Positions 1 through 22,049 are shown, counted from the first letter of the stretch. The stretch: DNA of 64,000 nucleotides from Candidatus Acetothermia bacterium (GCA_022683945.1 JAJHSH010000067.1:2085-66084), one strand, 5' to 3'. Notes: generated by a model not told the origin, from the letters alone. Numbers and translations: made by a program.

Positions 1-441
1 GGCTGCGTCTCCATCGGCTCGCTTTACACGTTCGGGCTCTGCGGGATCTTTGAAGTGAAAGAGAACGGAGAGTGGGGCCCACGCACCACCCCACAGCAGA
101 AGGGCATCAAAATAAAAAGCCGTGACGAAGCGCTCAGGGTTTTGGCCGACTGGAATCTCTCAAGGCCGGAGTGGCAGCACTTCTATTCCCATCAGCTCAA
201 GAGCGAGATGCTCATGCGCATCGTCAGAGAATGGAAAGTGGACGGCGTGCTCTTGCACTTCAATCGGGGATGTGAGGGTCTGTCGTTGGGGATCGCTGAG
301 AATAGACTCGCGCTGCAAAAGGCGGGGATTCCCGTGACGCCCTTCGAGGGCAACATGGGCGACTGTCGGGAGTTCGACAAGGCGCGCACGCTGACACGGG
401 TGGACGCGTTTATGGAATCGTTGGGGGTGAAAAAATTATGA
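1..441 (+). CDS. 2-hydroxyacyl-CoA dehydratase / benzoyl-CoA reductase (HgdB/BcrB-like) subunit, C-terminal part; 5' end lies outside the window
   Basis: Frame 1 is open from nt 1 (no stop before the ORF-track Met at 55). The stop overlaps the ATG of the next gene (ATGA at 438-441). C-terminal region resembles HAD/BCR-family subunits (recalled similarity), and two activase ATPases follow. Confidence 0.5.
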
Positions 442-1217
442 TCACCGCGGGAATTGATTGCGGAGCTAGAACGGTCAAAGCTCTGGTTCTACAGGACGGC
501 ACAGTGTTGGGAAAGGGCGCAGCCCTCACGGGCTTCGATCAACAAGCGGCCATCACGCAGGCGTTCCAGAGCGCGTTGCAGCAAGCAAGCCTCGGACACT
601 CTCAGATTCAGCATATCACCGCCACAGGTATCGGGCACAACGCGGTCTCATTCGCTCAGAGCCAGATCACCGAAGTCAGCGCCGATGCCAAAGCAGCAGT
701 CTTTCTCTTCCCCACAGCGCGCACTGTCCTCGATGTCGGCGCGGAAGAGGGCCGGGCTATTCGTTGCGAAGCCGATGGCAGAGTCAAAGATTTTGCCGTG
801 AACGAGAAGTGCGCCGCCGGCGCGGGGACGTTCATCGAGACGATGGCGCGCACGCTGGAGATCAAGCTCGAAGAGGCCGGGGCGCTCTCGCTTAAAGCGA
901 CGAAAGTGATCCCGATGAACGCCCAGTGCGCCGTCTTCGCCGAAAGCGAAGTCGTCTCGCTCATTCACTCTGGGGTCGCCAAAGAAGAAATCATTCGCGC
1001 GGTGCACGAGTCCATGGCCGACAGAATCGGCGCGATGGCGCGTCGCGTGGGGATAGAGAGAGAAGTCGTGCTCGTCGGCGGCGTAGGGCGCGATCAGGGA
1101 TTTATCAGATCGCTCTCGGAGGAGCTGGGCTTTGCGCTCTTAGTCCCCGAAGACCCTGAATACGCCGGTGCGCTCGGTGCAGCGCTGATGGCTGCCGAGC
1201 GTGCTCAAGGAGGTTGA
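438..1217 (+). CDS. CoA-substrate-specific enzyme activase (BadF/BadG/BcrA/BcrD/HgdC ATPase family), copy 1
   Basis: 259 aa, acetate/sugar-kinase fold ATPase. N-terminal [10 protein letters not shown] motif. Two conserved Cys motifs typical of HgdC-type activators (NEKCAAGAG and [12 protein letters not shown]) for the bridging [4Fe-4S] cluster. Confidence 0.85.
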
Positions 1218-1221
1218 CTTT

Positions 1222-2121
1222 ATGGCAGAAGCAGTGGCAACTGCAACACCACAGAAGCGCGAGTACTGGCGCTGGACGGAGTATAACTGGCGTGACGAAT
1301 CCCTCGATTGGCGAGGAGCGCGCGTGATCTCCGTGGGCATTGACGTCGGTTCCGTCAGCTCTCAAGCTGTGATCCTCTGCGACGGAAAGCTCTTCGCTTA
1401 CAGCAGCTTACGCACGGGATCTAACTCTCCTACAAGTGCGCAGCGGGCGCTCGACGCGGCTCTAGAAAAGACCGAGGTGCCCCGCGAAAAGATTCACTAT
1501 ATCGTCGCGACGGGCTATGGGCGGGTCAATATCCCGATTGCGCACAAAGCGATTACCGAGATCGCCTGTCACGCGCGCGGCGCGAATTTTATATACGGGC
1601 CGACGGTGCGAACGGTCTTAGACATGGGCGGACAGGACTGCAAAGCCATTCGCTGCGACGAGAAGGGCAAAGTGACGAATTTTCTGATGAACGATAAGTG
1701 CGCCGCGGGCACGGGCCGCGGGATGGAGGTCATGGCCGATCTCTTGCAAGTGCCCATCGAAGAAGTTGGCCCGGCTTCGCTCGCCGTGGACGAAGAACCT
1801 CCGCCGGTCAGCAGCACGTGTGTGGTCTTCGCCAAATCAGAAGTTTTGAGTCTGTTGCGCTTGGGTTGGCCGCGAGAGAGGGTCTTAGCGGCCTTCTGTT
1901 CTGCGATGGCCCATCGGACGGTTGAATTATTGATGCGCATCGGCGTCGAGCGCGAGTTTGCTATTACGGGGGGTATTGCCAAGAATGTCGGGATCGTGCA
2001 GCGAGTCAAGCGCGAGTTAGGGATCGAAGCTCTGAAGCCTAAGATAGACCCGCAGATCGCCGGGGCGTTGGGCGCAGCGCTCTTCGCCAAGGCCCTCTAT
2101 GAGAAGGAGCAGAAACAATAA
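1222..2121 (+). CDS. CoA-substrate-specific enzyme activase (BcrA/BcrD/HgdC family), copy 2
   Basis: Same family but a different sequence (ISVGIDVGSVSSQAV; NDKCAAGTG; STCVVFAKSEV). ATG at 1222 is preceded by AAGGAGG at 1207-1213; the ORF-track start at 1201 overlaps the previous gene. Confidence 0.85.
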   Translation: MAEAVATATPQKREYWRWTEYNWRDESLDWRGARVISVGIDVGSVSSQAVILCDGKLFAYSSLRTGSNSPTSAQRALDAALEKTEVPREKIHYIVATGYGRVNIPIAHKAITEIACHARGANFIYGPTVRTVLDMGGQDCKAIRCDEKGKVTNFLMNDKCAAGTGRGMEVMADLLQVPIEEVGPASLAVDEEPPPVSSTCVVFAKSEVLSLLRLGWPRERVLAAFCSAMAHRTVELLMRIGVEREFAITGGIAKNVGIVQRVKRELGIEALKPKIDPQIAGALGAALFAKALYEKEQKQ

Positions 2122-2193
2122 CAAATCTTCTGGAGCTTTTTAGATGGGCCTGCGGCTCAAATAATACTGATTTGACTTTATCATGTCATCAAG

Positions 2194-2345
2194 AGCTGAC
2201 AGCAGATTTCGGTAGCAGATTAAGCGGATTATACCCTAAAATCAGCTTAATCCGCTACCCGAATCCGCTGTCAGCTCTACGCACTGCGCGACGCCTGCAC
2301 AGCAAATTAGTATAAGCTATCAGCTGATAACTGTCAGCTTTTTTC
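2194..2345. terminator. Cluster of nested palindromes between convergent genes; the last hairpin has a T-run (intrinsic terminator for the + operon)
   Basis: AGCTGACAGC (2194-2203) pairs with GCTGTCAGCT (2267-2276). Inner stem AGCGGATTA (2223-2231) pairs with TAATCCGCT (2247-2255). AGCTGA-TAACTG-TCAGCT (2322-2339) is followed by TTTTTTC. Confidence 0.5.
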
Positions 2346-2351
2346 AAAAGA

Positions 2352-3377
2352 TCATGCCAACTTGCCGATAGCTCTGGCAGGCCTGAAGATACCCCTCTCC
2401 GTAATGATGGCGGTAATAAGGAAACGGGGCGTGATATCGAAGGCAGGGTTTCGCGCTTTGGCCCCGCGAGGGGCCAGCTTTATCCCTTGAATATGGGTAA
2501 CTTCTTTGGGCTCGCGCTCCTCAATGGAGATTCCGCTGCCGTCTTTGAGGGAAGGATCAATGGTGGAGGTCGGCGCGGCTACGTAAAAGGGAATCTTATG
2601 ATGGTGAGCCAAGACGGCCAATGAATAAGTCCCGATCTTGTTGGCTACATCGCCGTTTGCCGCAATGCGGTCGGCACCCACAATCACTCTGCTCACCTCG
2701 CCCCGCTGCATAAGAGAGCCTGCGGCATTATCTACAATGATCTCAAATGGGATGCCCTCTTGAGCAAGCTCCCAAGCAGTGAGTCTTAACCCCTGCAGCA
2801 GCGGCCTTGTTTCAGCTACTAAGACTTTTATTCTTTTGCCCTGCTGCCAGGCGGCCTTAATGATGCCTAAAGCTGTGCCATACTCCGCGGTTGCCAGAGC
2901 TCCCGTGTTGCAATGCGTCAAGATCGCATCGCCTTCTTTGATCAACTTGGCGCCGTTTCGGCTCAATCTCTTGTCAGCTTCAAGGCCCTCTTGCTTTATG
3001 CGGTGGGCTTCGGCCAACAGGGCCTGCTGAAGCTTCCGCAGTCCCTCGTGGCGATGCTTCTCAAAGATCTCTTTCATTCGAGCGATGGCCCAGAAGAGAT
3101 TGACGGCGGTAGGTCTAGTCCGACTTAGCTCTTCGACAATGGAGGCAAATTTTTCGTCGAGATGCTTTTCATCTTTGAGGTTCTTTGCTCCCAGCACGAT
3201 CCCATAGGCAGAGGCCACGCCGATGGCCGGAGCTCCTCGCACGGCCATTTCCTTAATCGCGGCTGCCACCCCTTTGTGATCCTTGAGCTTTAGGATCTTA
3301 ACGCGATTAGGCAACTGGCGCTGGTCAACCAGTTCCACACGCCCATCAGCCCAATTCACCACTTGCACCCTTCTCAC
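2352..3377 (-). CDS. mtnA: S-methyl-5-thioribose-1-phosphate isomerase (eIF-2B alpha/beta/delta family)
   Basis: 341 aa. Strong family resemblance (GAPAIGVASAYG, HCNTGALAT, VLVAETRPLLQG, IVGADRIAANGDVANKIGTYSLAVLAHHHKIPFYVAAPTSTID). Confidence 0.85.
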   Translation of the reverse strand: MRRVQVVNWADGRVELVDQRQLPNRVKILKLKDHKGVAAAIKEMAVRGAPAIGVASAYGIVLGAKNLKDEKHLDEKFASIVEELSRTRPTAVNLFWAIARMKEIFEKHRHEGLRKLQQALLAEAHRIKQEGLEADKRLSRNGAKLIKEGDAILTHCNTGALATAEYGTALGIIKAAWQQGKRIKVLVAETRPLLQGLRLTAWELAQEGIPFEIIVDNAAGSLMQRGEVSRVIVGADRIAANGDVANKIGTYSLAVLAHHHKIPFYVAAPTSTIDPSLKDGSGISIEEREPKEVTHIQGIKLAPRGAKARNPAFDITPRFLITAIITERGIFRPARAIGKLA

Positions 3378-3457
3378 GCCATTATTTTAGCACAAAGTTG
3401 CCCGATCTAGTATCATGAACTACAGGGTCTGAGAATGGAAGTCTGCAGAAAGCGAGC

Positions 3458-3757
3458 GTGATTGAGCGAATGCTGACCAACTACGGCTACAAAGACGGCT
3501 CCGGCGAGTATTTTATCACGATTGACACAGAGAAGTGCACCGGTTGTCAGAAGTGCGTAGCAATCTGTCCCGCGCAGCTTTTTGAAGTCGTCGCCGATCC
3601 GTTTGATCCGTTAGCAGAAAGAGAAATCGCTGTGGTCAGAGAAGAGCACCGCAAGAAGCTCAAATACAGCTGTGTGCCCTGCAAGCCGTCGGGTGAACGC
3701 TTGCCGTTGCCGTGCGTGCAAGCTTGTCAGCCTCAAGCCATCTCACACTCTTGGTAG
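3458..3757 (+). CDS. Small 4Fe-4S ferredoxin-like protein
   Basis: 99 aa with CTGCQKCVAICP (CxxCxxCxxxCP) plus additional Cys (CVPC, CVQAC). Start could be the downstream Met at 3470. Confidence 0.55.
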   Translation: MIERMLTNYGYKDGSGEYFITIDTEKCTGCQKCVAICPAQLFEVVADPFDPLAEREIAVVREEHRKKLKYSCVPCKPSGERLPLPCVQACQPQAISHSW

Positions 3758-3766
3758 GTTCACACT

Positions 3767-4858
3767 ATGACGCTGACCATTGACGGACAGACTGTGACAG
3801 CACGAGAGGGCCAGACGTTGCTGGAAGCCGCCCGCGACGCGGACATATATATTCCCGCTCTTTGCGCCCACCCTGATCTGCTTCCCGGCCCTAGAATCAC
3901 GAGCGTAAGAGCCGTCTATCGCGGCTCGCAGCGGATCGTCTCAGAAACTGTTGAGAACTTCGTTGGCTGCGGCCTCTGCGTCGTCCGCGTGAACGAAGAG
4001 TCAAGATGGGCCTGCACGACGGCTGCAACAGCGGGAGCCACTGTGAAAACAGAGACTGCCGAGATACTTTCCCAACGTCAGAGCGCACTCAGAGAGATCT
4101 TGAAAGATCACCCGCACGTCTGTCTGATCTGCCCGCAGCGTGAGGGCTGTGACCGTCTTTCGTGCTCCATGAACGTGCCCGTCGAAGAGCGCTGCTGCTG
4201 GAAGTTCTCGGAGTGCGAATTGCGAAAAATCTCTGAATATATCGGCATTCCCACAGATACGCCGCGCTATATCTGTCAGCAGATCCCCGTGCTCGACGGC
4301 GAGCCGCTCTTCGTTCGAGATTATAATCTCTGCATTGGTTGCACCCGCTGCGTGCGCATCTGCGCCGATATTCGTCAGGCGCTCGGCTTCATAGCGCGCG
4401 ACGGGAAAGCGATAGTAGGCAGCGTAGGGGCGACGTTGCTCGACTCAAACTGTAAGTTCTGCACGGCTTGTGTAGTCGTCTGCCCAACGGGAGCATTGCG
4501 CGACAAAGACTCTTCAAAAGCGATTGAACGCCGTCGCAAGCTCCAGATCGTCTATCAGCCGGCTCCCTTGCCCCCGGAGCCTTGGCGCGCTTTCAGTGCG
4601 GCTGAAGTCGCCTGTGTTTCCGAGTGCGAAGGGGTCTATCAATTGCTCGATGAACAAAAAAATACTATTCGCATCGCAGGCGTGCCCAATCTGAGAAAGG
4701 CGCTCACAGAACAGCTTGAAACCGGTTCCAAAACTCGATACTTTGTTTACACAGAAAACCCAATGTACACGCAACGCGAGAGCGAGCTTCTTCAAGAATA
4801 TTTGCACAAGCACGGTCGTCTGCCCGAAGGAAATGACGAACTGAGCGATCTGTTCTGA
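3767..4858 (+). CDS. Fe-S protein: N-terminal 2Fe-2S ferredoxin fold (NuoG/FdhA/HymC N-terminus-like) plus two 4Fe-4S motifs and a C-terminal domain of unknown function
   Basis: MTLTIDGQTVTAREGQTLLEAA..IPALCAH N-terminus typical of 75-kDa-subunit-like 2Fe-2S domains. HVCLICPQREGCDRLSC, CIGCTRCVRICAD and CKFCTACVVVCPTGAL cluster-binding motifs. No molybdopterin domain. Confidence 0.6.
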   Translation: MTLTIDGQTVTAREGQTLLEAARDADIYIPALCAHPDLLPGPRITSVRAVYRGSQRIVSETVENFVGCGLCVVRVNEESRWACTTAATAGATVKTETAEILSQRQSALREILKDHPHVCLICPQREGCDRLSCSMNVPVEERCCWKFSECELRKISEYIGIPTDTPRYICQQIPVLDGEPLFVRDYNLCIGCTRCVRICADIRQALGFIARDGKAIVGSVGATLLDSNCKFCTACVVVCPTGALRDKDSSKAIERRRKLQIVYQPAPLPPEPWRAFSAAEVACVSECEGVYQLLDEQKNTIRIAGVPNLRKALTEQLETGSKTRYFVYTENPMYTQRESELLQEYLHKHGRLPEGNDELSDLF

Positions 4859-4923
4859 AAGAGAATCTGTAAATCAGTCAACGGACGAGTAACGGATGAA
4901 CGACAGCGAAGGAGTGATTCTTC

Positions 4924-5691
4924 ATGCAAGTCAATCTCAACGGCAGAGTCGCGCTGGTCACCGGAGCAGCGCTGGGAATCGGACGGGCGATCTCACTGAC
5001 TTTGGCCAAGAACGGCGCCGATCTCGTGCTCAACGACATTGACCGCCCTTCAGCAGAAGCCCTCACCCAAGAGATCCAAAAGCTCGGACGACGCGCAGTC
5101 ATGGCCATCGCTGACGTTTCAGATTACGCCCAAGTCAAACGATCTGTAAACGAAGCACTGGTTCACTTTGGGCAGATAGACATTCTGGTCAACAACGCGG
5201 GTTGGGACAAGGGGATCATCCCGTTTTTGAAGACCGATCCCAAAGATTGGGAGCGAGTCATCGCCATCAATCTGATCGGTCTGCTGAATTGCACTCATAT
5301 CGTTGGGGCACAGATGGCGCAGCGCAAGTCGGGGAAGATCATTAATATCAGTTCAGATGCCGGGCGCGGCGGCAGCTTCGGCGAGGCCGTTTATGCCGGC
5401 TGCAAAGCGGGCGTGATCGCACTGACTAAAACGTGGGCGCGGGAGTTCGCCCGCGATAATATCCGAGTGAACTGCATCTGTCCGGGGCTGGTGGACACGC
5501 CGCTTCTGGCAAAGCTCAAGCAAGATGACTTAGGCAAGAAAGTTTTAGAGCGCATCGAGCAACTGATGCTCTTGGGATTGGGCAAGCCCGAAGATATTGC
5601 GAACGCCGTGCTCTTTTTCGCTTCGGAAGAGTCTCATCACATCACGGGGCAGGTGCTGAGCGTGAGCGGGGGCTTGACGTTCCAAGGCTAA
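4924..5691 (+). CDS. SDR-family oxidoreductase (3-oxoacyl-ACP reductase FabG-like)
   Basis: 255 aa. TGAALGIGRA Rossmann motif, NNAG, catalytic Y..K (YAGCKAG), C-terminal ITGQVLSVSGG. Confidence 0.85.
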   Translation: MQVNLNGRVALVTGAALGIGRAISLTLAKNGADLVLNDIDRPSAEALTQEIQKLGRRAVMAIADVSDYAQVKRSVNEALVHFGQIDILVNNAGWDKGIIPFLKTDPKDWERVIAINLIGLLNCTHIVGAQMAQRKSGKIINISSDAGRGGSFGEAVYAGCKAGVIALTKTWAREFARDNIRVNCICPGLVDTPLLAKLKQDDLGKKVLERIEQLMLLGLGKPEDIANAVLFFASEESHHITGQVLSVSGGLTFQG

Positions 5692-5698
5692 TAGTACA

Positions 5699-6847
5699 AT
5701 GAGAATATCTATGAAAAAGATATCGGGAGTCACAATCGCGATAGTTCTGCTCTTCTCTCTTTGGGCTGCGCCCCCGATCTGGGCGCAGCGGGGCATCGGC
5801 CCTCTGTGCGGTTATACCCCTCCCATCAGCGAGTTCCAAGATCTGAAAATTTCGGGGAATTATCGCTATTATAATGACCCCTTTGCCGATAATCGCAGCA
5901 ACGATAGCTCTGGGAGCCTGAGAGCGAGCTTCTCCCGCATCTTCGATGCCCCGACATACGGCGTCTCTCAGCAAGCGATGGTACGGGTTGATCTCAATCG
6001 GGGGATCTTTAATTACCAAGCCGATGCCGCTCTGAATCTGCGCGGCTACCTGCCCGAGACGAATTTCTTCGGGTTCACGGGAGTAGAAGGACAGAGCACG
6101 TCGGCTCTCCCCATGCCCAGCTTGAAAATCTCTGCTGGAGGGGGCTTGGGGCGCTTCAAAGACGTCACTCCCTTGGCAAAGGCGCTCAAGATTCAAGAGC
6201 GACTATTGGACCTAAAGGCCATCGCCGACGCTCTGCCCCCAACGGTGATCTTTGAGGTCGCCGATACGATTGGACGTCGGCGCGAATTTCCCGATCTGGC
6301 GGCATTAGTGCAGCGCCTCGAAGAGATCATTGAAGCGAGCGGCTTCGTCCTTCAGGACCAGCATCTGGGCGCGGCGGCGCTCTTGCGCATGGAGGAGATC
6401 CTCAACGAGACGGCAGACGAAAAGCTTTGCGGCTGGGAGGTGCGCCTGGGCGTGGGCTATGAACTTCTCGATCCCAAAGACGACAGACGCGAGCTGCTCG
6501 CGCTCGCCTCTTTTGATTATGCGCTGGCTCCTGCGCCGCGTTCGCAGTTCAGCAGCAAACTCCAGCTTAGCTCTGCGTTTCCCCTCTTTGATGACTACGT
6601 GCTGTTGGCAAAAATTAATTATCTCTTTCGGTTTACCGAGAGAATTGACACCCAGATCACCTATAGTTTTATTCGCACCAAGCCTAGAGCACTAGAAGCT
6701 CTCGATCTGCAAGGGCTCGATCTGCGCGTGACGTTCCAAGTGCAAGCCAATCTCAACTTTGCGCTGCAACTCGAGATGTCTTGGGCGAACGATTTTGAAG
6801 AATGGTCCCAACGCTTGATCCTGACCTTTAATTATGATTTTTTCTAG
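5699..6847 (+). CDS. Secreted protein, probable outer-membrane beta-barrel (signal peptide; C-terminal ...NYDFF)
   Basis: N-terminal signal peptide (KKISGVTIAIVLLFSLWAAPPIWAQ). Alternating hydrophobic beta-strand pattern at the C-terminus, ending in Phe as in OMP sorting signals. No recognised family. Confidence 0.4.
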   Translation: MRISMKKISGVTIAIVLLFSLWAAPPIWAQRGIGPLCGYTPPISEFQDLKISGNYRYYNDPFADNRSNDSSGSLRASFSRIFDAPTYGVSQQAMVRVDLNRGIFNYQADAALNLRGYLPETNFFGFTGVEGQSTSALPMPSLKISAGGGLGRFKDVTPLAKALKIQERLLDLKAIADALPPTVIFEVADTIGRRREFPDLAALVQRLEEIIEASGFVLQDQHLGAAALLRMEEILNETADEKLCGWEVRLGVGYELLDPKDDRRELLALASFDYALAPAPRSQFSSKLQLSSAFPLFDDYVLLAKINYLFRFTERIDTQITYSFIRTKPRALEALDLQGLDLRVTFQVQANLNFALQLEMSWANDFEEWSQRLILTFNYDFF

Positions 6848-7421
6848 AATTGTTCTAGCCGCACTGCTGGCCTGCGGGGTCTTTCTCGCATCTTCAGCGT
6901 CTGCGCCGGCCTTGGCGCAGCCCTCGGCACAAGCGAGCGACTACGTCGTTTTGGAGTTTGTCTTTGGGCTACAAGGGGCGTTGCTGGGAGGGGGCGCGGG
7001 CTTCTATGCCACGTATTTTGCGCTCACGATCTTTCAGCCCTGTCCTACAGCTCAGCCGGAGCGCCGCGCCTGCGAGCTGGGCCGATCTCTGGTCGCTCTC
7101 TTAGTCGGACCGAACTTGGGGATTCCGCCGGGAGCGACTTTCTTGGGGGTGGCTCTCGCAGGTGCTTTAGTAGGAGTGGAAGGCAATCTTTGGTTGGCGC
7201 TGGTGGGCAGCATTGCCGGGACGCTCTTGGGGGGGGCGCTGGCGGGCAACTGGATCTTAGAACCTACGGATTTTTCGCTCGTCGTCAACCCGGTGACGAT
7301 GGCGGCTCTGGGCGCCACGGTGGGCTATAACATCGGAGCGAGGATGCGCAACTCTCCGCCCAGTCCTTCGCAGCTTCCCTCTATAAGCTACGAGATTGCT
7401 GCCCTGCGCTGGCGCTTCTGA
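6834..7421 (+). CDS. Gly/Ala-rich membrane protein (glycine-zipper-like), hypothetical
   Basis: 195 aa with signal peptide and repeated GxxxG-rich hydrophobic segments. Overlaps the upstream gene end and the convergent mutY end. Confidence 0.35.
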   Translation: MIFSRIVLAALLACGVFLASSASAPALAQPSAQASDYVVLEFVFGLQGALLGGGAGFYATYFALTIFQPCPTAQPERRACELGRSLVALLVGPNLGIPPGATFLGVALAGALVGVEGNLWLALVGSIAGTLLGGALAGNWILEPTDFSLVVNPVTMAALGATVGYNIGARMRNSPPSPSQLPSISYEIAALRWRF

Positions 7422-8497
7422 TATTTTCTCTGTAAAAGCGCTAAGATGCGCTTATTGGCCGCTGGAAAAGCGAAGCTCTCTAAGTTCTCCAACTCCACCC
7501 ATCTCCAGGGGCGTTGGCTCTTTGGTCTATGCCGGAGATGTTGACATTCAAAGACGTGCAGCGTCACGGTGAAGTGCGAGTAGCCGTGCTCGATGACCGT
7601 AAGCGGGCGCACTTGATTGACCCGCATCCCGGTCTCTTCAGCGATCTCACGCACAAGAGTTCTCCTGAGGGTCTCGTTCTCTTGACGCTTGCCTCCGGAG
7701 AATTCCCAAAGCCCTCCTAGGAGCCCGTCATCGGGCCGACGGGCGATGAAGATCTTATTCTCTTTCCAGATGACGCCGACGGCGACCTCGTAGTGGGGCT
7801 TGGTGCGCTTGGGGGCAGTTATGGGTAATTCTTGCTGCAGGTCGCGGCGTCGCGCCTCGCAGAAGGGACTGAGCGGACAGAGGAGACAGCTTGGTCTCTT
7901 GGGAAGACAGATCGTTGATCCCAAATCCATCAGGGCTTGGTTGAACTCTCCAGTTTGTCCTGGGGGGATCAGTTGACGGCAGAGACTCTCTAAAAGTTTC
8001 TCTGTGGCAGGCTTGCGCGGATCTTTGCGCAGGGCGAAGAGCCTACAGAGAACGCGACGGGCATTGGCATCGAGAGCGGGCTCGTCTCTCTCAAACGCGA
8101 TGCTGAGAATCGCTCCAGCCGTATAGCGTCCCACTCCGGGAAGCTTCAGAAGCGCTTCTCGTTCTGAAGGGATTTTTCTGTTGTAATCGCGCACGACGAT
8201 CTGAGCAGATCTGTGAAGATTCCGCGCGCGTGCATAATAGCCCAGCCCCTCCCAAAGTTTGAGCACATCGTCGAGCGGCGCGCGCGCCAGTGCTTCTATA
8301 GTGGGGAATTCTTCGAGAAACCGTTTATAGTACGGAAGAGTCGTCTTCACTTGGGTCTGCTGGAGCATAACTTCTGAGACCCAGATACGATAAGGGTCTT
8401 TGGTCTTTCTCCAGGGGAGGTCGCGCTGGTGGCGCGCGTAGAATTGGAGGAGCGCCTTGGCGATAGCTGAAGCCCGCTTAAGAAGAGGGTGCGACAT
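7388..8497 (-). CDS. mutY: A/G-specific adenine DNA glycosylase MutY (HhH-GPD plus C-terminal NUDIX-like domain)
   Basis: Motifs WRKTKDPYRIWVSEVMLQQTQV, LPGVGRYTAGAIL. 4Fe-4S Cys cluster CLPKRPSCLLCPLSPFC. Start is taken at the Met of MSHPLLKRA (codon 37 of the ORF-track call); the longer N-terminus overlaps another ORF. Confidence 0.85.
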   Translation of the reverse strand: MSHPLLKRASAIAKALLQFYARHQRDLPWRKTKDPYRIWVSEVMLQQTQVKTTLPYYKRFLEEFPTIEALARAPLDDVLKLWEGLGYYARARNLHRSAQIVVRDYNRKIPSEREALLKLPGVGRYTAGAILSIAFERDEPALDANARRVLCRLFALRKDPRKPATEKLLESLCRQLIPPGQTGEFNQALMDLGSTICLPKRPSCLLCPLSPFCEARRRDLQQELPITAPKRTKPHYEVAVGVIWKENKIFIARRPDDGLLGGLWEFSGGKRQENETLRRTLVREIAEETGMRVNQVRPLTVIEHGYSHFTVTLHVFECQHLRHRPKSQRPWRWVELENLESFAFPAANKRILALLQRKYQKRQRRAAIS

Positions 8498-8846
8498 GGG
8501 CGATGCGCTCCGGGTTGGGGAGGCCGGCCTCTTCGCGGCAGAGGAGTTCCCACCAGAGGCGCATCCGATACCGGGGCGAATCTTTAAGAATCTGACAGAT
8601 CGCACGGCGCAGCCACCATCTCAGATAATAGACGGACTGCAGTGCGCCTTCTGTAGAAGGCCAGTGAATATAGATATAGTGTCTGTCGGTCAAGTCTTGG
8701 AGGCATTCTAGAATCAAGTCCGAAGAACGGCCCAAACGGTCTGCTAGGCGCAGCGCGCTGGCCGCGCCCTCGTACCAGAGCGAATGCAAGATATCTGCTT
8801 GGAGCTGCAGTCGTTCTTCTCTGGACAGTCTGAGAGCCGTTTCCAT
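8478..8846 (-). CDS. Small hypothetical protein, possible winged-helix regulator
   Basis: 122 aa ORF upstream of mutY on the same strand. The segment AASALRLADRLGRSSDLILECLQDLTDRHYI resembles a wHTH recognition region. Weak call. Confidence 0.3.
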   Translation of the reverse strand: METALRLSREERLQLQADILHSLWYEGAASALRLADRLGRSSDLILECLQDLTDRHYIYIHWPSTEGALQSVYYLRWWLRRAICQILKDSPRYRMRLWWELLCREEAGLPNPERIAHVAPSS

Positions 8847-8954
8847 ACACTAAAATTTATAGCGCGAAAGGGGTCAAATGTCAAGAGGGGGCCTCGGTCC
8901 CCTTGGCTCGATTACTTGACAACCCCGCATAGTGCTTGCTACTATAAAACTCTC

Positions 8955-10439
8955 ATGATCGCGGCAACTCTACAAAAACGCTATAAGCTTTTTGTCGGCG
9001 GCGCGTGGATCGAACCCGAAGCGCGCCAGTTCTACACTTGTATCAATCCCGCTACCAACGAGATCATTACGGAGATCCCCGCAGGAAATAAAGCCGATAT
9101 AGATCAAGCCGTCGAGGCGGCCTGGGGAGCTTATAAAACAGAGTGGCATAGAACGGACGCCACCAAGCGCGGCAAAATTCTATGCGCCGTTGCGCAACGC
9201 ATCCGCGAACACCAAGAAGAGCTGGCCCAGATCGAGACCCTCGACAACGGCAAGCCCATCGTCGAGTCGCGAGCCGATCTCTTCATGGCTGCCGAGTGCT
9301 TTGAATACTACGGCGGCTTGGCCAACAAGATCGAGGGCAAAGTCGTCCCCGTCTTTGGAGATCGCTTGGACTATGTGCTGCGCGAGCCGTGGGGCGTCGT
9401 TGGTCAGATCGTCCCTTGGAACTTCCCCGTGCTGATGGCCGCATGGAAGCTGGCTCCGGCGCTGGCAGCGGGCAATTGCTCCGTCTTAAAGCCCGCAGAA
9501 CAGACGCCGCTCTCGGCGCTGAGATTGGCCGAACTGATGCAAGATCTTCTGCCCAAAGGCGTTATTAATATCGTCACGGGCTTTGGCCCCGAAGCGGGAG
9601 CTCCCTTGGTTCAACACCAGAAAGTAAAGAAGATCGCGTTTACGGGCTCTACCGAAGTAGGGCGTCTGATTATGCGTATGGCTGCCGAGCACGTTGCCGA
9701 CGTCACTTTGGAGCTTGGGGGTAAGAGCCCGCAGATCGTCTTTGCAGATGCGAATATAGAGATAGCTGTCGAGGGCGTCTTGATGGGGATCTTTTATAAC
9801 GCCGGGCAACAGTGCTCCGCAGGTTCTCGATTGTTCTTGCACAAAGATATCTATCGGTCTTTTATGGAAAAGCTTGTCGCGCGCGCCAAATCACTCAAGC
9901 TGGGCGACCCGACTAGGCCCGAAACCCAAATGGGCCCGTTGGTCTCGCGCGAGCAGCAAGAGCGAGTGCTCCACTATATTGAGATCGGCCGGCGCGAGGG
10001 CGCGAAGCTGCTCTGTGGGGGGCAGCCAGCGCCCAACAAAGATCTCGAAAGAGGCTGTTATGTCGAACCAACGATCTTCACCGACGTAGATATGACGAAG
10101 ATGCGCATCGCCCAAGAAGAGATCTTCGGCCCGGTGCTCGCCGTGACCGTGTGGGACGATTACGAGAAGATGCTCGCAGAAGCGAACAGTGTCGAGTATG
10201 GGCTGTGTGCGGGGATCTGGACGCAGAATCTAAACATCGCTCACAAGACGGCGCAGAGATTGGAAGCGGGCTATATCTGGATCAATCAGTATGACGTCTA
10301 CGCTTACGGAGCGCCCTTTGGGGGGTACAAATCGAGCGGCGTCGGGCGCGAGTTGGCCGCCGAGACGATCTTGCACTATACGCAACAGAAGAACGTCAAT
10401 ATAGACTTGAGCGGCAAGGGCGTGCGCTGGTTTAAGTAA
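8955..10439 (+). CDS. NAD(P)-dependent aldehyde dehydrogenase (ALDH family)
   Basis: Start at Met 58 of the ORF-track call (MIAATLQKRYKLFVGG), typical ALDH N-terminus. ELGGKSP Glu motif and catalytic Cys in GQQCSAGSR. Confidence 0.9.
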   Translation: MIAATLQKRYKLFVGGAWIEPEARQFYTCINPATNEIITEIPAGNKADIDQAVEAAWGAYKTEWHRTDATKRGKILCAVAQRIREHQEELAQIETLDNGKPIVESRADLFMAAECFEYYGGLANKIEGKVVPVFGDRLDYVLREPWGVVGQIVPWNFPVLMAAWKLAPALAAGNCSVLKPAEQTPLSALRLAELMQDLLPKGVINIVTGFGPEAGAPLVQHQKVKKIAFTGSTEVGRLIMRMAAEHVADVTLELGGKSPQIVFADANIEIAVEGVLMGIFYNAGQQCSAGSRLFLHKDIYRSFMEKLVARAKSLKLGDPTRPETQMGPLVSREQQERVLHYIEIGRREGAKLLCGGQPAPNKDLERGCYVEPTIFTDVDMTKMRIAQEEIFGPVLAVTVWDDYEKMLAEANSVEYGLCAGIWTQNLNIAHKTAQRLEAGYIWINQYDVYAYGAPFGGYKSSGVGRELAAETILHYTQQKNVNIDLSGKGVRWFK

Positions 10440-10450
10440 AGGAGAGCTTT

Positions 10451-10693
10451 ATGCTGGTTACTGCGGAGAGACAGCATACGATAAAAGCATTCGTGCGACG
10501 TGGAGAGAAATACTATGTTGCCGAGTGTATGGAGATCGCTGTTGTGACTCAGGGGAAGACGCTGGATGAAACTGTGACGAATCTTCGAGAGGCTGTAGCG
10601 CTGCATTTGCAAGATGAAGACCCGGCAGACTTTGGCTTGGCTCCTCACCCGACTCTGTTAGTGACTCTGGAGCTTGAACCTGTGGCTACATGA
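10451..10693 (+). CDS. HicB-like (UPF0150 family) antitoxin-fold protein, orphan
   Basis: 80 aa. YYVAECMEIAVVTQGKTLDETVTNLREAVALHL matches the HicB/UPF0150 signature (YxAxxPELPGcxxqGdTxEEAlxnxxEAixlhl). No HicA-like ORF is adjacent. Confidence 0.5.
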   Translation: MLVTAERQHTIKAFVRRGEKYYVAECMEIAVVTQGKTLDETVTNLREAVALHLQDEDPADFGLAPHPTLLVTLELEPVAT

Positions 10694-10721
10694 GTAAATA
10701 ACTCAAAGGAGGTGTCCGCCG

Positions 10722-11510
10722 ATGGCGGATGTCGTTGTCTTCGAGAAGCAGGGCTCGCTGGGGATCATCAAGCTCAATCGGCCCCCGGTCAACAGCTACA
10801 ATCACGAGATGTTCACGCAGTTCGGGCGCTGTGTCGACGAAGTGCGCTTTGACGATGCTATCAAAGTGGCTATCGTTACCAGCGCGTTGGACGGGATCTT
10901 CTCCGCGGGCGCGGATATTCGCATGCTCAAAGAGAGCACGCCCGACTACAAAGCGATGTTCTGTCTGAACTGTCAAGAGACGCTCACCAAGATGGAATCT
11001 ACTCCGAAGGTCTTTATTGCAGCCCTGAACGGAACGTGCGTCGGCGGCGGCCTGGAGATCGCGCTTGCTACAGATTTGCGCTTTGCCGCCAAAGACGCCG
11101 CGGGCAAATTCAGATTGGGCTTGCCCGAAGTGACGCTGGGGGTCTTGCCCGGCACGGGCGGCACGCAAAGATTGCCGAGATTGATCGGCAAATCACGCGC
11201 CTTAGATCTGATGATCACCGGGCGTCTGATCTCGCCCGACGAAGCTCTTCAGATGAGCTTAGTAGATCGCGTCTGGCCGCAGAATGAGTTTTGGGCCAAG
11301 ACGATGGAATACGCTCAGAGTTTGGTCAACGGCCCCACCCGCGCGATCAGCTTAATCAAGCGCTCGGTGCAAGAGGGCTTCGAGATGTCATTGACGGCGG
11401 CTCTGGCGTTGGAGCGCGAGCTACAGAACAGACTCTTTGTCACCAAAGACGCCCAAGAGGGCTTGGGAGCGTTTGCAGAGAAGCGCAAACCACAATTCAA
11501 AGGAGAATAG
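10722..11510 (+). CDS. Enoyl-CoA hydratase/isomerase (crotonase family)
   Basis: 262 aa. IKLNRPPVNSYN, AGADI and ALNGTCVGGGLEIALATDLRFAA oxyanion-hole motifs. Confidence 0.9.
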   Translation: MADVVVFEKQGSLGIIKLNRPPVNSYNHEMFTQFGRCVDEVRFDDAIKVAIVTSALDGIFSAGADIRMLKESTPDYKAMFCLNCQETLTKMESTPKVFIAALNGTCVGGGLEIALATDLRFAAKDAAGKFRLGLPEVTLGVLPGTGGTQRLPRLIGKSRALDLMITGRLISPDEALQMSLVDRVWPQNEFWAKTMEYAQSLVNGPTRAISLIKRSVQEGFEMSLTAALALERELQNRLFVTKDAQEGLGAFAEKRKPQFKGE

Positions 11511-11513
11511 CTT

Positions 11514-11984
11514 ATGATGGACACAAAACAGTACTTAGCGAACGTAGCGCGTTTTGCCGCTCAAGCCGTGGCCCGCACGGCGCCCTTTGTTCCAGAGAAC
11601 AAGCGCAATTGGTCGCCGATGGGTGCAGCGCGCACAACAACAGATATGGTGCAAGAGTGCGCGGAAGCTTTGGAGATCGCTACGAAGTTCATGCAGACGA
11701 GTCAGTTTGCGCGGCCCGATGCCCAAGCGCGCGCAGAACTGTTAAAGAAAAATCCCCCCAAGCTGGAGGAGCTCTTCCCGCGTTTGCAGAAAGCCGCGGA
11801 CGAATACGCCCAAGCGCTCGAAAAGTTCCCGGCGGAGCGCTTGATGGAGATGGTGCCCTCGCCCTTCGGGGGAGAGCCGCGACCTTTGCTGATGCAGCTC
11901 AGCATGCCTGTCTTTAATATGATGTACCACTACGGGCAGATCAACTATATCCAGACCATGCTGGGCGACACCGAGATGCATTAG
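11514..11984 (+). CDS. DinB-family (four-helix-bundle, YfiT/DinB_2-like) protein
   Basis: 156 aa with C-terminal YHYGQINYIQTMLG (H..YH.GQ signature of the DinB/YfiT family). Confidence 0.55.
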   Translation: MMDTKQYLANVARFAAQAVARTAPFVPENKRNWSPMGAARTTTDMVQECAEALEIATKFMQTSQFARPDAQARAELLKKNPPKLEELFPRLQKAADEYAQALEKFPAERLMEMVPSPFGGEPRPLLMQLSMPVFNMMYHYGQINYIQTMLGDTEMH

Positions 11985-11993
11985 GCAGCGGCG

Positions 11994-12983
11994 CTACAGA
12001 CGGAGACTCGGCTCCGGGGCTAATTCTAGAGGATTGTTCTGCCCCAGAGCTGTATTTCTAAAGTGCGCACACGCGGCGATCATCGCCGCGTTATCTGTAC
12101 AGAGCTCCATCTTGGGGAAAAAGACTTTATAGTCTCTGCAGGCGAGCAAGCGCTCGCGCAAGCGCGAGTTCGCGGCGACCCCGCCCACAACGACTAGTTT
12201 TTCTGTCTGGAGCTGCCGTGCAGCTTGAAGCGTTTTCTCGGTCAGGACATCTACGACGGCTTCTTGAAAGGACGCGGCGATGTCAGCGCGGTCGGCATCG
12301 GAATGATCGCGCAGATAATACACAATAGCTGTCTTGAGCCCGGCGAAGCTGAACTCCAGAGAGTCGGAGTCGAGCATCGGTCTGGGAAGCGCGATCGCTT
12401 TGGGATTACCCTGACGAGCCAATCTGTCGAGCGCCGCTCCCGCGGGATACCCCAATCCCAAGAGCTTTCCGACTTTGTCAAAAGCTTCGCCGGCGGCGTC
12501 GTCGCGCGTCTCTCCCAAGACTCTGTAATCCCCATAAGCGCGCACGTCCACCAGGAGCGTGTGCCCGCCGGAGACGAGTAGAGCCACAAAGGGCGGAGAC
12601 GCATCAAAGTTTTCCAAATAGTGCGCGAAGATGTGCCCCTCTAGATGATTCACGCCCACAAAGGGCTTTTCCAGTGCATAGGCGATTGCTTTGGCATAAG
12701 AGAGCCCTACTAAGAGAGGGCCGACCAACCCCGGCCCGTAGGTGGCCCCGACGAGCGAGATCTGGCGAAAATTTAATTTCGCTCTCTCTAGGGCATCTTG
12801 GACGACGAAGGGCAATTTTCTGATATGATTGCGCGAGGCGACCTCCGGGACGACGCCGCCATATTTGTCGTGGAGATGGGCTTGAGAATAGATAATATTC
12901 GCAAGGATCTCGCGGCCGTCGCGCAGCAGAGCGACGCTGGTCTCATCACAAGACGTCTCGATGCCGAGGGTGTAGTGGGCCAT
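11994..12983 (-). CDS. tsaD: tRNA N6-adenosine threonylcarbamoyltransferase TsaD (Kae1/Gcp)
   Basis: MAHYTLGIETSCDETSVALL N-terminus and HLEGH metal motif, 329 aa. Confidence 0.9.
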   Translation of the reverse strand: MAHYTLGIETSCDETSVALLRDGREILANIIYSQAHLHDKYGGVVPEVASRNHIRKLPFVVQDALERAKLNFRQISLVGATYGPGLVGPLLVGLSYAKAIAYALEKPFVGVNHLEGHIFAHYLENFDASPPFVALLVSGGHTLLVDVRAYGDYRVLGETRDDAAGEAFDKVGKLLGLGYPAGAALDRLARQGNPKAIALPRPMLDSDSLEFSFAGLKTAIVYYLRDHSDADRADIAASFQEAVVDVLTEKTLQAARQLQTEKLVVVGGVAANSRLRERLLACRDYKVFFPKMELCTDNAAMIAACAHFRNTALGQNNPLELAPEPSLRL

Positions 12984-13040
12984 ATAGCTGTTTAGTTTAC
13001 CACAATTTTATAGGGGCTCGCTCATCGTTGGAGCTTCGGC

Positions 13041-13070
13041 TTGAATTTGCCATAGGCTACCGATTATAAT
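13041..13070 (+). promoter_or_regulatory. Candidate sigma70 promoter for frr (TTGAAT-N18-TATAAT)
   Basis: TTGAAT at 13041-13046 and TATAAT at 13065-13070 in the divergent tsaD/frr intergenic region. Confidence 0.35.
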
Positions 13071-13088
13071 GACCCTTGGTGATTTCCT

Positions 13089-13646
13089 ATGCCGGACAGA
13101 CATATCGTTGACTTAAAGGCCCGCATGGACAAGACGCTCCAAGTCTTCGATCACGAATTGCAGAAGCTGCGCACCGGACGCGCCAACCCCGCTATGGTCG
13201 AAGACGTCAAGACAGACTACTACGGCACGCACACGCCGCTCAAGCACCTCGCACGGATCACCGCGCCTGAGCCCGACATGCTGCTCATCCAGCCCTTTGA
13301 CAAAACGCAGATCCAAGCGATAGAGAAAGCAATCCATGCGGCCAACTTGGGATTGAATCCAACGGTGGATGGCGATCTCCTGCGCATCAAGATCCCGCGA
13401 CTGACCGAAGAGCGTCGCAAAGAGCTCTCTAAAGTCATTCACGACAAGGCCGAAGAGGCGAAAGTCGCCCTGCGCAACATCCGCCGCGAGATCAAAGACC
13501 AACTGGACAGAGAACAAAAAGACGGAAAGATCTCCGAAGACGATCACGACCGGGTGATGAAAGAGCTGGACAAAGTCACGCACGACTACACAGCAAAAAT
13601 TACTCAAGCTGCACAAGCGAAAGAGAAACAACTGATGAGCGTTTGA
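13089..13646 (+). CDS. frr: Ribosome recycling factor
   Basis: 185 aa, full-length RRF similarity (LRTGRANPAMVEDVKTDYYGTHTPLKHLA...LLIQPFDK...LGLNP..DG..LRIKIP.LTEERRKEL). Confidence 0.95.
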   Translation: MPDRHIVDLKARMDKTLQVFDHELQKLRTGRANPAMVEDVKTDYYGTHTPLKHLARITAPEPDMLLIQPFDKTQIQAIEKAIHAANLGLNPTVDGDLLRIKIPRLTEERRKELSKVIHDKAEEAKVALRNIRREIKDQLDREQKDGKISEDDHDRVMKELDKVTHDYTAKITQAAQAKEKQLMSV

Positions 13647-13671
13647 CAAGAGACCGCGCTCTGGGTAGAAT
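13643..13671 (+). promoter_or_regulatory. Candidate promoter for the ATP synthase operon (TTGACA-N17-TAGAAT) overlapping the frr stop codon
   Basis: TTGACA 13643-13648 (contains the frr TGA), TAGAAT 13666-13671. About 185-nt leader before the first atp gene. Confidence 0.4.
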
Positions 13672-13857
13672 ATCGAAATAGTTGTTGTGCCTGCAGCGTC
13701 TATTGTGCAGCAAAATCTTCGTTGAGATTGAGGTCTTCTGTGGAGACGTCGAGCGCAACTGACATAGCCGATCCGCTCTTCAATCGGTCCGTATCGTCCA
13801 TTCTCTCCCCCTGCGGGGCTCTCTCTCGTATTTTCTGTTAAATAAAGGAGTTCACTT

Positions 13858-14175
13858 ATGGCTCAGGGAGTCTTGGAACGAATTCTCGATGCCGAAGAAC
13901 AGGCCGATCAGATCAAGATAGCCGCGCAAAAAGAAGCCGAGGCTCTTTGTGCGCAAGCGCGCCAAGGTGCAGCGTCACTGATAGAAGAGCACAAACAGAA
14001 AGCGCGCGCCGAGGCCGAGGCGCTCATCGCCACAGAAGAGAAGAAAGCCCAACAAGAAGCAGAAGAGATTCGTCATCACGGGGAAGCGAAAGCCAAGCTG
14101 CTTCAAAAAGAAGCTGCTGCTAAAATCGCTAAAGCCGTAGATCTGGTATTAGAGAGAGTGGTGCGTCGCGCATGA
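13858..14175 (+). CDS. A/V-type ATP synthase small peripheral-stalk subunit (G/H-like)
   Basis: 105 aa, charged coiled-coil (AEEQADQIKIAAQKEAEAL...). First gene of the operon as in Thermus atpG-I-K-E-C-F-A-B-D. AAGGAG 8 nt upstream. Confidence 0.6.
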   Translation: MAQGVLERILDAEEQADQIKIAAQKEAEALCAQARQGAASLIEEHKQKARAEAEALIATEEKKAQQEAEEIRHHGEAKAKLLQKEAAAKIAKAVDLVLERVVRRA

Positions 14176-16340: not shown

Positions 16341-16865
<525 letters not shown>

Positions 16866-16868
16866 ACT

Positions 16869-18812: not shown

Positions 18813-18820
18813 CCCCCTGG

Positions 18821-18844
18821 CCCCCTTCCCTAAAGGGAAGGGGG
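18821..18844. repeat. GC-rich hairpin CCCCCTTCCC-TAAA-GGGAAGGGGG between atpF and atpA
   Basis: Perfect 10-bp stem, identical to the stem at 44005-44029. Confidence 0.7.
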
Positions 18845-18869
18845 AGAGGTGAAATTAGGAGGATTGTTT

Positions 18870-22026: not shown

Positions 22027-22049
22027 AGCGTAAGAGGAAGTGAGAGACG

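Follow-up and report, generated by a model that had tools for sequence, protein, structure and literature searches.

A predicted bzd-type benzoyl-CoA reductase gene cluster with a shortened BzdV in an uncultured Acetothermia/Bipolaricaulota bacterium

Gene content and order of the cluster

The window, a 64-kb stretch of DNA from an uncultured Acetothermia/Bipolaricaulota bacterium, was analyzed together with the upstream DNA missing from it, which was taken from public contig L001 (identical to window positions 1-11217). Sequence comparisons indicate that positions 1-5691 very probably represent the distal two-thirds of the gene cluster for a bzd-type class I (ATP-dependent) benzoyl-CoA reductase. 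The genes listed in the original prediction were all present where it had placed them, with strong profile support (Table 1), and NCBI and JGI annotations already call these genes a bzd-type reductase. The same sequence is present in several independent assemblies, and all of the open reading frames of the cluster are intact.

Table 1. Features at positions 1-5691 of the window
Feature	Coordinates	Strand	Basis
3' end of bzdO (residues 291-436 of 436), catalytic beta subunit	1..441	+	TIGR03191; cut by window edge
bzdP, delta-type ATPase subunit of the electron-activating heterodimer	438..1217	+	PF01869 6e-51; BzdP clade
bzdQ, alpha-type ATPase subunit	1222..2121	+	TIGR03192; BcrAD_BadFG 4e-57
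Long hairpin with 42-nt arms, bzdQ-mtnA spacer	2192..2278		Inverted repeat, 86% complementary
Terminator-like hairpin then T run, between convergent bzdQ and mtnA	2322..2339	+	Consensus scan only
mtnA (methylthioribose-1-phosphate isomerase)	2352..3377	-	TIGR00512 437.8 bits vs cut-off 279
BzdM-type 2x[4Fe-4S] ferredoxin	3470..3757	+	Fer4 families; 95 aa in public call
Short BzdV: [2Fe-2S] + His/Cys [4Fe-4S] + 2x[4Fe-4S] wire + C-terminal DUF7508	3767..4858	+	Fer2_4 / NADH-G / 2x[4Fe-4S]
Classical SDR	4924..5691	+	adh_short 1e-59

The complete cluster comprises, in order, an HTH-GNAT regulator, an Amidohydro_2 protein, a BzdW-like enoyl-CoA hydratase, bzdN, bzdO, bzdP, bzdQ, mtnA on the opposite strand, the bzdM-like ferredoxin gene, a short bzdV, and the SDR gene. 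The L001 gene table and the window open reading frames give the order N-O-P-Q, in which a pair of HGD-D subunits precedes two different BcrAD_BadFG ATPases. The stop codon of bzdO and the start codon of bzdP overlap in the ATGA at 438-441, and a GGAGG 8 nt 5' of the ATG at 1222 supports that start for bzdQ. Comparison with 80 other loci and with sister genome L092, a step proposed in the original prediction, demonstrated that the order N-O-P-Q-ferredoxin-BzdV is kept across phyla. L092 has the same cluster, SDR included, without interruption and with 82-96% protein identity across the cluster. The enzyme class is already well known and the operon is otherwise standard, its only unusual parts being the shortened electron-transfer partner protein (BzdV) and the unrelated inserted gene, mtnA.

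The convergent mtnA that had been predicted to intervene was readily recognized (TIGR00512, 438 bits). It splits the operon, lies outside the reductase system, and is a lineage-specific insertion, because the operon is contiguous in L092, where mtnA is absent and the ferredoxin gene directly follows bzdQ. Nor was mtnA found in any of the 80 other loci compared. The long hairpin between bzdQ and mtnA (RNA fold z = -7.9) is unique in the window, has no Rfam match, and likely marks where a transcript ends or where the insertion left a scar. A consensus scan identified a promoter-like site at 3387-3416, 5' of the ferredoxin gene.

Catalytic subunits, ATPases, and substrate

The first 441 nt of the window encode the C-terminal 146 amino acids of an HGD-D protein (Pfam PF06050, 1e-14), which matched model positions 283-427 of 430 in NCBIfam TIGR03191 (7e-68). 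The scores for full-length BzdO (TIGR03191, 689.5 bits versus a cut-off of 448.6) and for BzdN (TIGR03190, 499.2 versus 453.8), which come from the identical contig L001, outside the window itself, both passed the equivalog thresholds. Membership in the Thauera-type Bcr or MBR-type Mbd groups was rejected (BcrB, 69.3 versus 486.55; BcrC, 135.9 versus 421.15; MbdO, 46 bits; MbdN, 100 bits).

BzdQ also passed its equivalog threshold (TIGR03192, 447.6 versus 380.2 bits), and an identical protein, MCI2432314.1, is named by NCBI "benzoyl-CoA reductase, bzd-type, subunit Q." BzdP is 51-53% identical to Aromatoleum BzdP and shares with it the BzdP-specific signature DVGAEEG; no dedicated P model passes, and its score with the benz_CoA_red_D model was 144.8 against a cut-off of 312.85. 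The two ATPases share only 36% identity. A neighbor-joining tree that included Aromatoleum sequences separated the BzdP clade cleanly from the BzdQ clade, with one of the two ATPases in each. Both keep the two cysteines of the bridging cluster, in the motifs N(D/E)KCAAG and C(A/V)VFA(E/K)SE. On this sequence evidence the two ATPases are the old paralogues BzdP and BzdQ, and neither is a recent or degenerate duplicate.

The full-length catalytic subunits were compared with crystallized BzdNO of Aromatoleum sp. CIB (PDB 8s02), to which BzdO is 64% identical (8s02_A) and BzdN 55%, at the residues named for that enzyme in PMC11971306. Window nucleotides 25, 37, and 271-282 encode Y298, L302, and C380-E381-G382-L383 (CIB numbering). 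The ligands of the BzdO aqua-[4Fe-4S] cluster (C95, C128, and C380) and the acid-base pair E65/H131 are identical and invariant in 79 homologues. E381-G382-L383 is conserved, the ring-pocket residues W46, Y97, L302, and L383 are identical to those of the crystallized enzyme, and the thioester hydrogen bond donors Y97, Y298, and Q274 are identical to those in the benzoyl-CoA complex. The compared BzdO residues are invariant or nearly so among the 79 homologues. The exception in the pocket is Ser44, near ring C3, which is Gly. In BzdN, C36, C73, C100, C263, C293, and C327 are conserved, and these six positions are predicted to ligate the [8Fe-9S] double-cubane; the surrounding Arg/His environment (R53, R267, R290, and H330) is also kept.

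These results bear on whether the cluster could instead encode a 2-hydroxyacyl-CoA dehydratase of the HgdAB/HadBC type with a duplicated activator. Such dehydratases belong to the same BCR/HAD superfamily, and HadI and HgdC were the best or near-best PDB matches for the ATPases. However, the HadB and HadC models scored far below their cut-offs (138.9 versus 750 and 180.1 versus 700, respectively), whereas the bzdO and bzdN models passed; BzdN keeps the six [8Fe-9S] cysteines, and BzdO keeps His131, a position occupied by Ala in HadB (PMC11971306). Furthermore, the ATPases are ancient paralogues in which the cluster ligands are kept in both. A dehydratase is thus hardly credible. The upstream sequence and the activase phylogeny, both suggested for examination in the original prediction, revealed BzdN and BzdO rather than a standard HgdAB dehydratase with a degenerate duplicate activase, because the BzdN and BzdO equivalogs were passed, the Had models were far below, and the ATPases fell in separate clades with their cysteines kept. 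The expectation of an architecture like that of class I benzoyl-CoA reductases, with two distinct ATPases, is therefore supported; of the ATP-driven "reduction or dehydration" that was proposed, dehydration can be dropped.

The family name alone does not fix the substrate of the reductase. The CoA thioester was originally considered to be of unknown identity, a description that does not really hold because the benzoyl-CoA pocket of crystallized BzdO is conserved. It is nevertheless conceivable, but rather unlikely, that the cluster encodes a bzd-family aryl-CoA reductase with the same ATP-driven mechanism and a physiological substrate other than benzoyl-CoA, such as methyl-, halo-, or hydroxy-benzoyl-CoA, or a bicyclic compound already reduced in part (for example, tetrahydronaphthoyl-CoA). 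For example, bzd-annotated operons of N47 and NaphS2, with ferredoxin and BzdV, have been assigned to a THN-CoA reductase. The S44G replacement slightly opens the BzdO region near ring C3, but it is found in 29 of the 79 homologues, comprising all nonbetaproteobacterial clades, and the four hydrophobic ring-pocket residues and three thioester hydrogen bond donors are those of the benzoyl-CoA complex. Loci with altered pockets (W46A/N, L383T/S, and Q124S) do exist and differ from the present locus. The neighboring genes also bear on the substrate. No homologue of benzoate-CoA ligase, Had (BzdX), or Oah (BzdY) was detected in the 64-kb window or the 9.5 kb upstream; the locus instead has genes for an SDR, an Amidohydro_2 protein, and an aldehyde dehydrogenase. 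However, the upstream enoyl-CoA hydratase, whose top match was TIGR03189 (177.5 versus a cut-off of 292.5), shares 47-51% identity with the gene that occupies the bzdW position in Aromatoleum loci.

The best NCBIfam match of the SDR was BadH (TIGR03206), but designation as BadH (2-hydroxycyclohexanecarboxyl-CoA dehydrogenase) was rejected because the score was below the cut-off (255.5 versus 431.2 bits) and FabG-type models scored nearly as high. The best PDB matches were (3R)-hydroxyacyl-CoA dehydrogenase, FabG, and BbsD. The SDR is putatively assigned to the downstream ring pathway as a beta-hydroxyacyl-CoA dehydrogenase. The ferredoxin and Fe-S protein that had been predicted to be part of the module do belong to it, as the counterparts of BzdM and a short BzdV; what speaks for including the SDR, predicted along with them, is only its conservation in L092, where a copy with 86% identity is found at the same place.

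Ferredoxin and the short BzdV

The longest open reading frame for the ferredoxin starts at GTG 3458, and the protein has two [4Fe-4S] motifs. Across phyla, in most of the 80 loci, the gene that follows bzdQ encodes a protein 46-62% identical to it, and the identity to the product of the gene at the bzdM position in Aromatoleum is 48-51%. The ferredoxin gene, parted from bzdQ by mtnA here, adjoins bzdQ in L092. Its product is the BzdM counterpart and the presumed direct electron donor to BzdPQ. By analogy with the characterized Thauera and Aromatoleum enzymes, the ferredoxin would reduce the [4Fe-4S] cluster bridging the BzdP-BzdQ heterodimer, and hydrolysis of one ATP per electron would drive the electron to very low potential. 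The electron would then pass to the [8Fe-9S] double-cubane of BzdN and on to the aqua-[4Fe-4S] cluster of BzdO for the reaction expected of this class, the ATP-dependent reduction of benzoyl-CoA to 1,5-dienoyl-CoA. The dienoyl-CoA would then be processed by the hydratase encoded upstream and, probably, by the SDR.

The protein originally described as similar to the N terminus of NuoG proved to be a shortened BzdV; in its predicted structure (model pLDDT, 89.9), the N-terminal ~257 residues superpose on HoxU, NuoG-N, and the [FeFe]-hydrogenase F-domain (HydA). Full-length BzdV (~850 amino acids), a putative NADPH:ferredoxin oxidoreductase, consists of a HoxU-like Fe-S N terminus, Fer4_20, Pyr_redox_2, and DUF7508. 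The 363-amino-acid protein aligns only to BzdV residues 4-266 (53%) and 770-865 (62%), lacking the ~500 central residues of the Fer4_20/Pyr_redox_2 (NAD(P)H-flavin) module. The part matching residues ~267-769 is also absent from the rest of the window and from the 9.5 kb upstream, the short BzdV has no module recognizable as binding a reductant, and neither an OFOR nor another ferredoxin reductase was found near the cluster. As judged from its domains, the short BzdV alone cannot be an NAD(P)H:ferredoxin oxidoreductase. It is a flavin-less BzdV that most likely serves as an electron wire between a reductant system and the ferredoxin.

It might be considered that the mtnA insertion and the shortened BzdV mark the lost function of a decaying remnant, in an operon interrupted by mtnA and a long hairpin and with a BzdV devoid of its central residues. 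This is very improbable. Every open reading frame is intact, with a promoter-like site 5' of the ferredoxin gene, and the sequence is identical in several independent assemblies and maintained at 82-96% protein identity in the sister genome. Moreover, the short form of BzdV constitutes its own family of more than 80 clusters, with invariant cluster ligands, and in each of the six contexts examined it comes directly after bzd(NO)PQ-ferredoxin.

We tentatively suggest that the short BzdV, a HoxU-like Fe-S wire joined to a GIY-YIG-fold DUF7508 (~365 amino acids), could be a distinct and widespread partner for electron input to the bzd-type reductases of strict anaerobes, in place of the NAD(P)H-linked BzdV of denitrifiers. 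If so, the ferredoxin would be recharged otherwise, for example by docking to a module that is encoded elsewhere and linked to hydrogenase, formate, or 2-oxoacid. Within the reach of the literature searches, no description of a short-BzdV partner was found.

Relation to known systems and significance

The nearest known system is BzdNOPQ with BzdM and BzdV of Aromatoleum (Azoarcus) sp. CIB and A. evansii (PDB 8s02; PMC11971306; PMC5658619). The four subunits and their order are alike, with identities of 64% (BzdO), 55% (BzdN), ~67% (BzdQ), and ~52% (BzdP), and the cluster ligands, acid-base pair, and benzoyl pocket are identical save for S44G. In both clusters a ferredoxin gene comes after bzdQ, but here mtnA lies between them; both have a GNAT gene, BzdT in Aromatoleum and an HTH-GNAT fusion here. 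The locus here lacks bzdS/U, bzdX (Had), bzdY (Oah), bzdA, and the Fer4_20 + Pyr_redox_2 (NAD(P)H/FAD) part of BzdV, which has 363 amino acids here against ~849 in Aromatoleum, and its hydratase gene is upstream rather than downstream. The host belongs to a strictly anaerobic candidate phylum, whereas Aromatoleum is a denitrifier.

The bzd clusters of other uncultured anaerobes, for example deep-sea Chloroflexi (PMC5736913), and the other loci compared, from Binatia, Gemmatimonadota, Ignavibacteriales, and Bacillota, have the same core order, also have Gly at Ser44, and likewise place an ATP-consuming reductase in an obligate anaerobe. Nearly all of the species-representative loci fetched carry the long BzdV, unlike the short form here, and the nearest locus has a ferredoxin and a 2-oxoacid:ferredoxin oxidoreductase instead. 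The superfamily, heterotetramer logic, and ATP-driven electron activation are common to Thauera-type BcrCBAD/BadDEFG and MBR-type MbdONQP, but sequence similarity to these is only distant. The HgdAB/HgdC and HadBC/HadI dehydratases share the subunit fold families and an ATPase with a bridging [4Fe-4S] cluster; they have a homodimeric activator, in contrast to the heterodimeric ATPase, [8Fe-9S] site in BzdN, and His131 in BzdO found here.

Acetothermia/Bipolaricaulota are generally seen as fermenters or acetogens. The locus adds them to the lineages carrying an ATP-dependent aromatic-ring reductase. This finding changes little, as the pattern has already been reported in other uncultured anaerobes and public pipelines annotate the genes. 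As a side lead of modest weight, the flavin-less BzdV may interest specialists in the regeneration of low-potential ferredoxin, with many clusters pairing the reductase with a BzdV that lacks the NAD(P)H/flavin module.

Subunit identity of the reductase

The original prediction, which was made from the sequence alone, was that window positions 1-5691 encode a benzoyl-CoA-reductase-type module of class I. The gene list of that prediction was matched exactly by an ORF map of window positions 1-9000 combined with translation of the run-off frame, with domains assigned by Pfam (see the table). The bzdO stop codon overlaps the start of the next gene (ATGA), and the ATG at 1222 is preceded by GGAGG 8 nt upstream.

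Upstream DNA was found by looking for exact matches to the first ATPase, which led to a 145.7-kb public contig (JGI Ga0484004_000045) that NCBI MAGs contain as well. In the stretch fetched from it, positions 9564-20780 are 100% identical to window positions 1-11217, and the additional 9.5 kb upstream encodes, in order, an XdhC-like product, an HTH-GNAT protein, an Amidohydro_2 protein, an enoyl-CoA hydratase, and two HGD-D proteins. The catalytic subunits are BzdN and BzdO by the NCBIfam cut-offs: the first HGD-D protein scored 499.2 bits as BzdN (cut-off, 453.8) and the second 689.5 bits as BzdO (cut-off, 448.6). The second ATPase likewise qualifies as BzdQ, at 447.6 bits (cut-off, 380.2). 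Identities as HadB, HadC, BcrB, or BcrC were rejected, with model scores far under their cut-offs. The Q subunit is already named "benzoyl-CoA reductase, bzd-type, subunit Q" at NCBI, JGI names the other subunits accordingly, and identical proteins are deposited under Candidatus Acetothermia bacterium.

Identity between the two ATPases is 36%, and each retains both cysteines for the bridging cluster. They were placed in a neighbor-joining tree of BzdP and BzdQ from 21 loci plus PDB chains of HadI, HgdC, MbdP, MbdQ, and the DCCP activase; the "Q" of one comparison locus (L013) was an ORF-extraction artifact and was disregarded. The first ATPase grouped within the BzdP clade (51-53% identity with Aromatoleum), the second within the BzdQ clade (about 67% identity with Aromatoleum). 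The P-position ATPase fails the benz_CoA_red_D model and, in PDB, is nearer to MbdQ than to MbdP. The possibility that it is not a true BzdP was ruled out by the tree and by a motif match to the Aromatoleum BzdP: BzdP proteins, including that of Aromatoleum, have in common DVGAEEG, which replaces the usual DxGGQD phosphate motif. Its failure with the BcrD-based model is therefore explained by its placement in the BzdP clade and by this replacement. The original interpretation was thus correct, and the cluster is that of a conventional bzd-type benzoyl-CoA reductase.

Positions of genes and other features in the window and in related loci
Sequence	Feature	Position	Strand	Assignment
Window	HGD-D (bzdO 3' end)	1-441		Pfam
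Window	BcrAD_BadFG ATPase, first	438-1217		Pfam
Window	BcrAD_BadFG ATPase, second	1222-2121		Pfam
Window	87-nt hairpin	2192-2278		
Window	Terminator-like hairpin	2322-2339		
Window	IF-2B/MtnA	2352-3377	minus	Pfam
Window	4Fe-4S dicluster ferredoxin	3458-3757		Pfam
Window	Fer2_4 + NADH-G + Fer4 + DUF7508 protein	3767-4858		Pfam
Window	adh_short (SDR)	4924-5691		Pfam
Window	DUF481-like gene and 195-aa protein	5699-7421		Weak Pfam match (PF04338) for DUF481-like gene
Window	Aldehyde dehydrogenase, 80-aa ORF, second enoyl-CoA hydratase	8955-11510		
Window	V/A-type ATPase operon (I, E, C, A, B, D)	14172-22682		
L001 (public contig)	Amidohydro_2 gene	5929-6774		
L092 (sister genome)	Extra gene 1	4062-4742		
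L092	Extra gene 2	5977-6750		
L092	bzdQ-ferredoxin junction	9709-9710		
L005 (nearest species representative)	Extra gene 1	7104-7796		
L005	Extra gene 2	9242-10000		
L005	89-aa ferredoxin and two-subunit oxidoreductase after bzdQ	13249-15487		

Conservation of the active site

Operons annotated as bzd that include BzdV have also been assigned to a tetrahydronaphthoyl-CoA reductase (PMC6849830). Therefore, the substrate call rests on the conserved pocket and not on the family name. Functional residues (PMC11971306) were mapped from the BzdNO structure of Aromatoleum sp. CIB (PDB 8s02, 2025), to whose chains BzdO and BzdN are 64% and 55% identical, respectively. BzdO is identical to that of CIB at the three ligands of its cluster (C95, C128, and C380), at the E65/H131 pair that activates water, in the pocket for the ring (W46, Y97, L302, and L383), at the thioester donors (Y97, Y298, and Q274), and at E381-G382; the sole change among the mapped residues is Gly in place of S44. 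Y298, L302, and the C380-E-G-L motif are encoded in the part of bzdO that lies within the window. BzdN keeps six cysteines as well as R53, R267, R290, and H330. Among 79 BzdO homologues from 80 genome loci the mapped positions were invariant or nearly so, and Gly44, present in 29 of the 79, is the normal state outside Betaproteobacteria. A few of these loci have altered pocket residues, unlike the cluster described here.

A second bzdNOPQ paralogue occurs in several Aromatoleum genomes (L071 to L076, Aromatoleum/Azoarcus second loci). Its BzdO is about 76% identical to that of CIB and has the active-site changes S44A and A45G, and the genes have an SDR downstream and no adjoining ferredoxin or BzdV. 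This paralogue may have a different substrate specificity.

Electron transfer genes and the mtnA insertion

Retrieval with a BzdO profile gave 80 loci; among these, the order N-O-P-Q-ferredoxin-large Fe-S protein is repeated across phyla, in Aromatoleum as well as in Binatia, Gemmatimonadota, Ignavibacteriales, and Bacillota. The window ferredoxin is 46-62% identical to the ferredoxins of those loci and matches the position of bzdM in Aromatoleum. The large Fe-S protein is BzdV, with 815-950 aa in nearly all of the loci and the domains Fer2_4, two Fer4, Fer4_20, Pyr_redox_2, and DUF7508. The alignment of the window's 363-aa Fe-S protein to BzdV covers only residues 4-266 and 770-865; the protein is therefore a BzdV without the GltD-like NAD(P)H/flavin module. 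No match to the missing central module was found in the window or the 9.5 kb upstream. The short form does not reflect a single deletion peculiar to this genome: more than 80 clusters of it (340-392 aa, 41-89% identity, about full coverage), with invariant cluster ligands, were recovered from a database, and in all six genomic contexts examined it lay directly after bzd(NO)PQ and the ferredoxin gene.

The nearest species-representative locus (L005, labeled Ca. Fraserbacteria) differs in what comes after bzdQ: another kind of ferredoxin, of 89 aa, and a 2-oxoacid:ferredoxin oxidoreductase with two subunits replace the BzdM-like ferredoxin and BzdV. This arrangement is a Thauera-like solution for ferredoxin recharging. 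No such oxidoreductase genes were found in the window or the 9.5 kb upstream.

The sister genome (L092, GCA_900174565.1) has the same cluster, with enzymes at 82-96% protein identity (HTH-GNAT, 56%; hydratase, 76%). There the cluster is uninterrupted, with bzdQ, the ferredoxin, short BzdV, and an SDR (86% identical) in direct succession. Thus, the SDR travels with the module. Its best matches were BadH (under the cut-off), FabG, (3R)-hydroxyacyl-CoA dehydrogenase, and BbsD, and it is probably a hydroxyacyl-CoA dehydrogenase of the ring pathway. The mtnA gene is a lineage-specific insertion, as L092 joins bzdQ straight to the ferredoxin gene. The window has a near-perfect 87-nt hairpin between the convergent bzdQ and mtnA (42-nt arms, 86% complementary; RNA fold z = -7.9). 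It is unique within the window, with a terminator-like hairpin after it. Rfam gave no match in window positions 1-12000, which include the 87-nt hairpin. This hairpin may terminate transcription in both directions or may be a scar left when mtnA was inserted. A promoter-like site ahead of the ferredoxin gene, which is a consensus match only, suggests that the cluster could be split into two transcription units.

L092 and L005 share two extra genes that are absent from the window's genome, encoding proteins of 226-230 aa (between the hydratase gene and bzdN) and 252-257 aa (between bzdN and bzdO). Conservation within the cluster is highest for the Amidohydro_2 gene, located before the hydratase gene and bzdN, with identities of 96% (L092) and 92% (L005) that exceed those of bzdO. 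Its product belongs to no NCBIfam family; the best PDB match was 3irs, which is uncharacterized, and ACMSD/LigW-type decarboxylases came next. The gene may encode an unrecognized pathway enzyme.

Pathway context

Translations of every ORF in an Aromatoleum evansii bzd locus served as queries; BzdX (Had), BzdY (Oah), BzdS, and BzdU had no match in the window or the 9.5 kb upstream. Had, Oah, benzoate-CoA ligase, and ferredoxin-reducing enzymes were all absent from the 73.5 kb examined, and the Pfam context of window positions ~20-60 kb included no CoA ligase or glutaryl-CoA dehydrogenase. That region holds only housekeeping genes, such as those for V-ATPase, ABC transporters, RecA/LexA, and ribosomal protein S1, and all of the window beyond about 11.5 kb is housekeeping. 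The SDR gene is followed by a DUF481-like gene, whereas in L092 it is followed by a thiolase gene. A 195-aa Gly/Ala-rich hydrophobic protein is also encoded there, and the aldehyde dehydrogenase and second enoyl-CoA hydratase genes lie beyond a divergent mutY. The V/A-type ATPase operon, ~8.5 kb past the end of the cluster, is complete and consistent with an Acetothermia/Bipolaricaulota origin.

Class I bzd-type reductases have already been reported in uncultured strict anaerobes (PMC5736913). A limited literature search found no paper crediting a bzd-type reductase to Acetothermia; papers that name both Acetothermia and benzoyl-CoA reductase do not credit the enzyme to that phylum. The finding at window positions 1-5691 is real and comes down to a cluster for a conventional bzd-type benzoyl-CoA reductase, in which the flavin-less BzdV family is the only element that may merit attention of its own.
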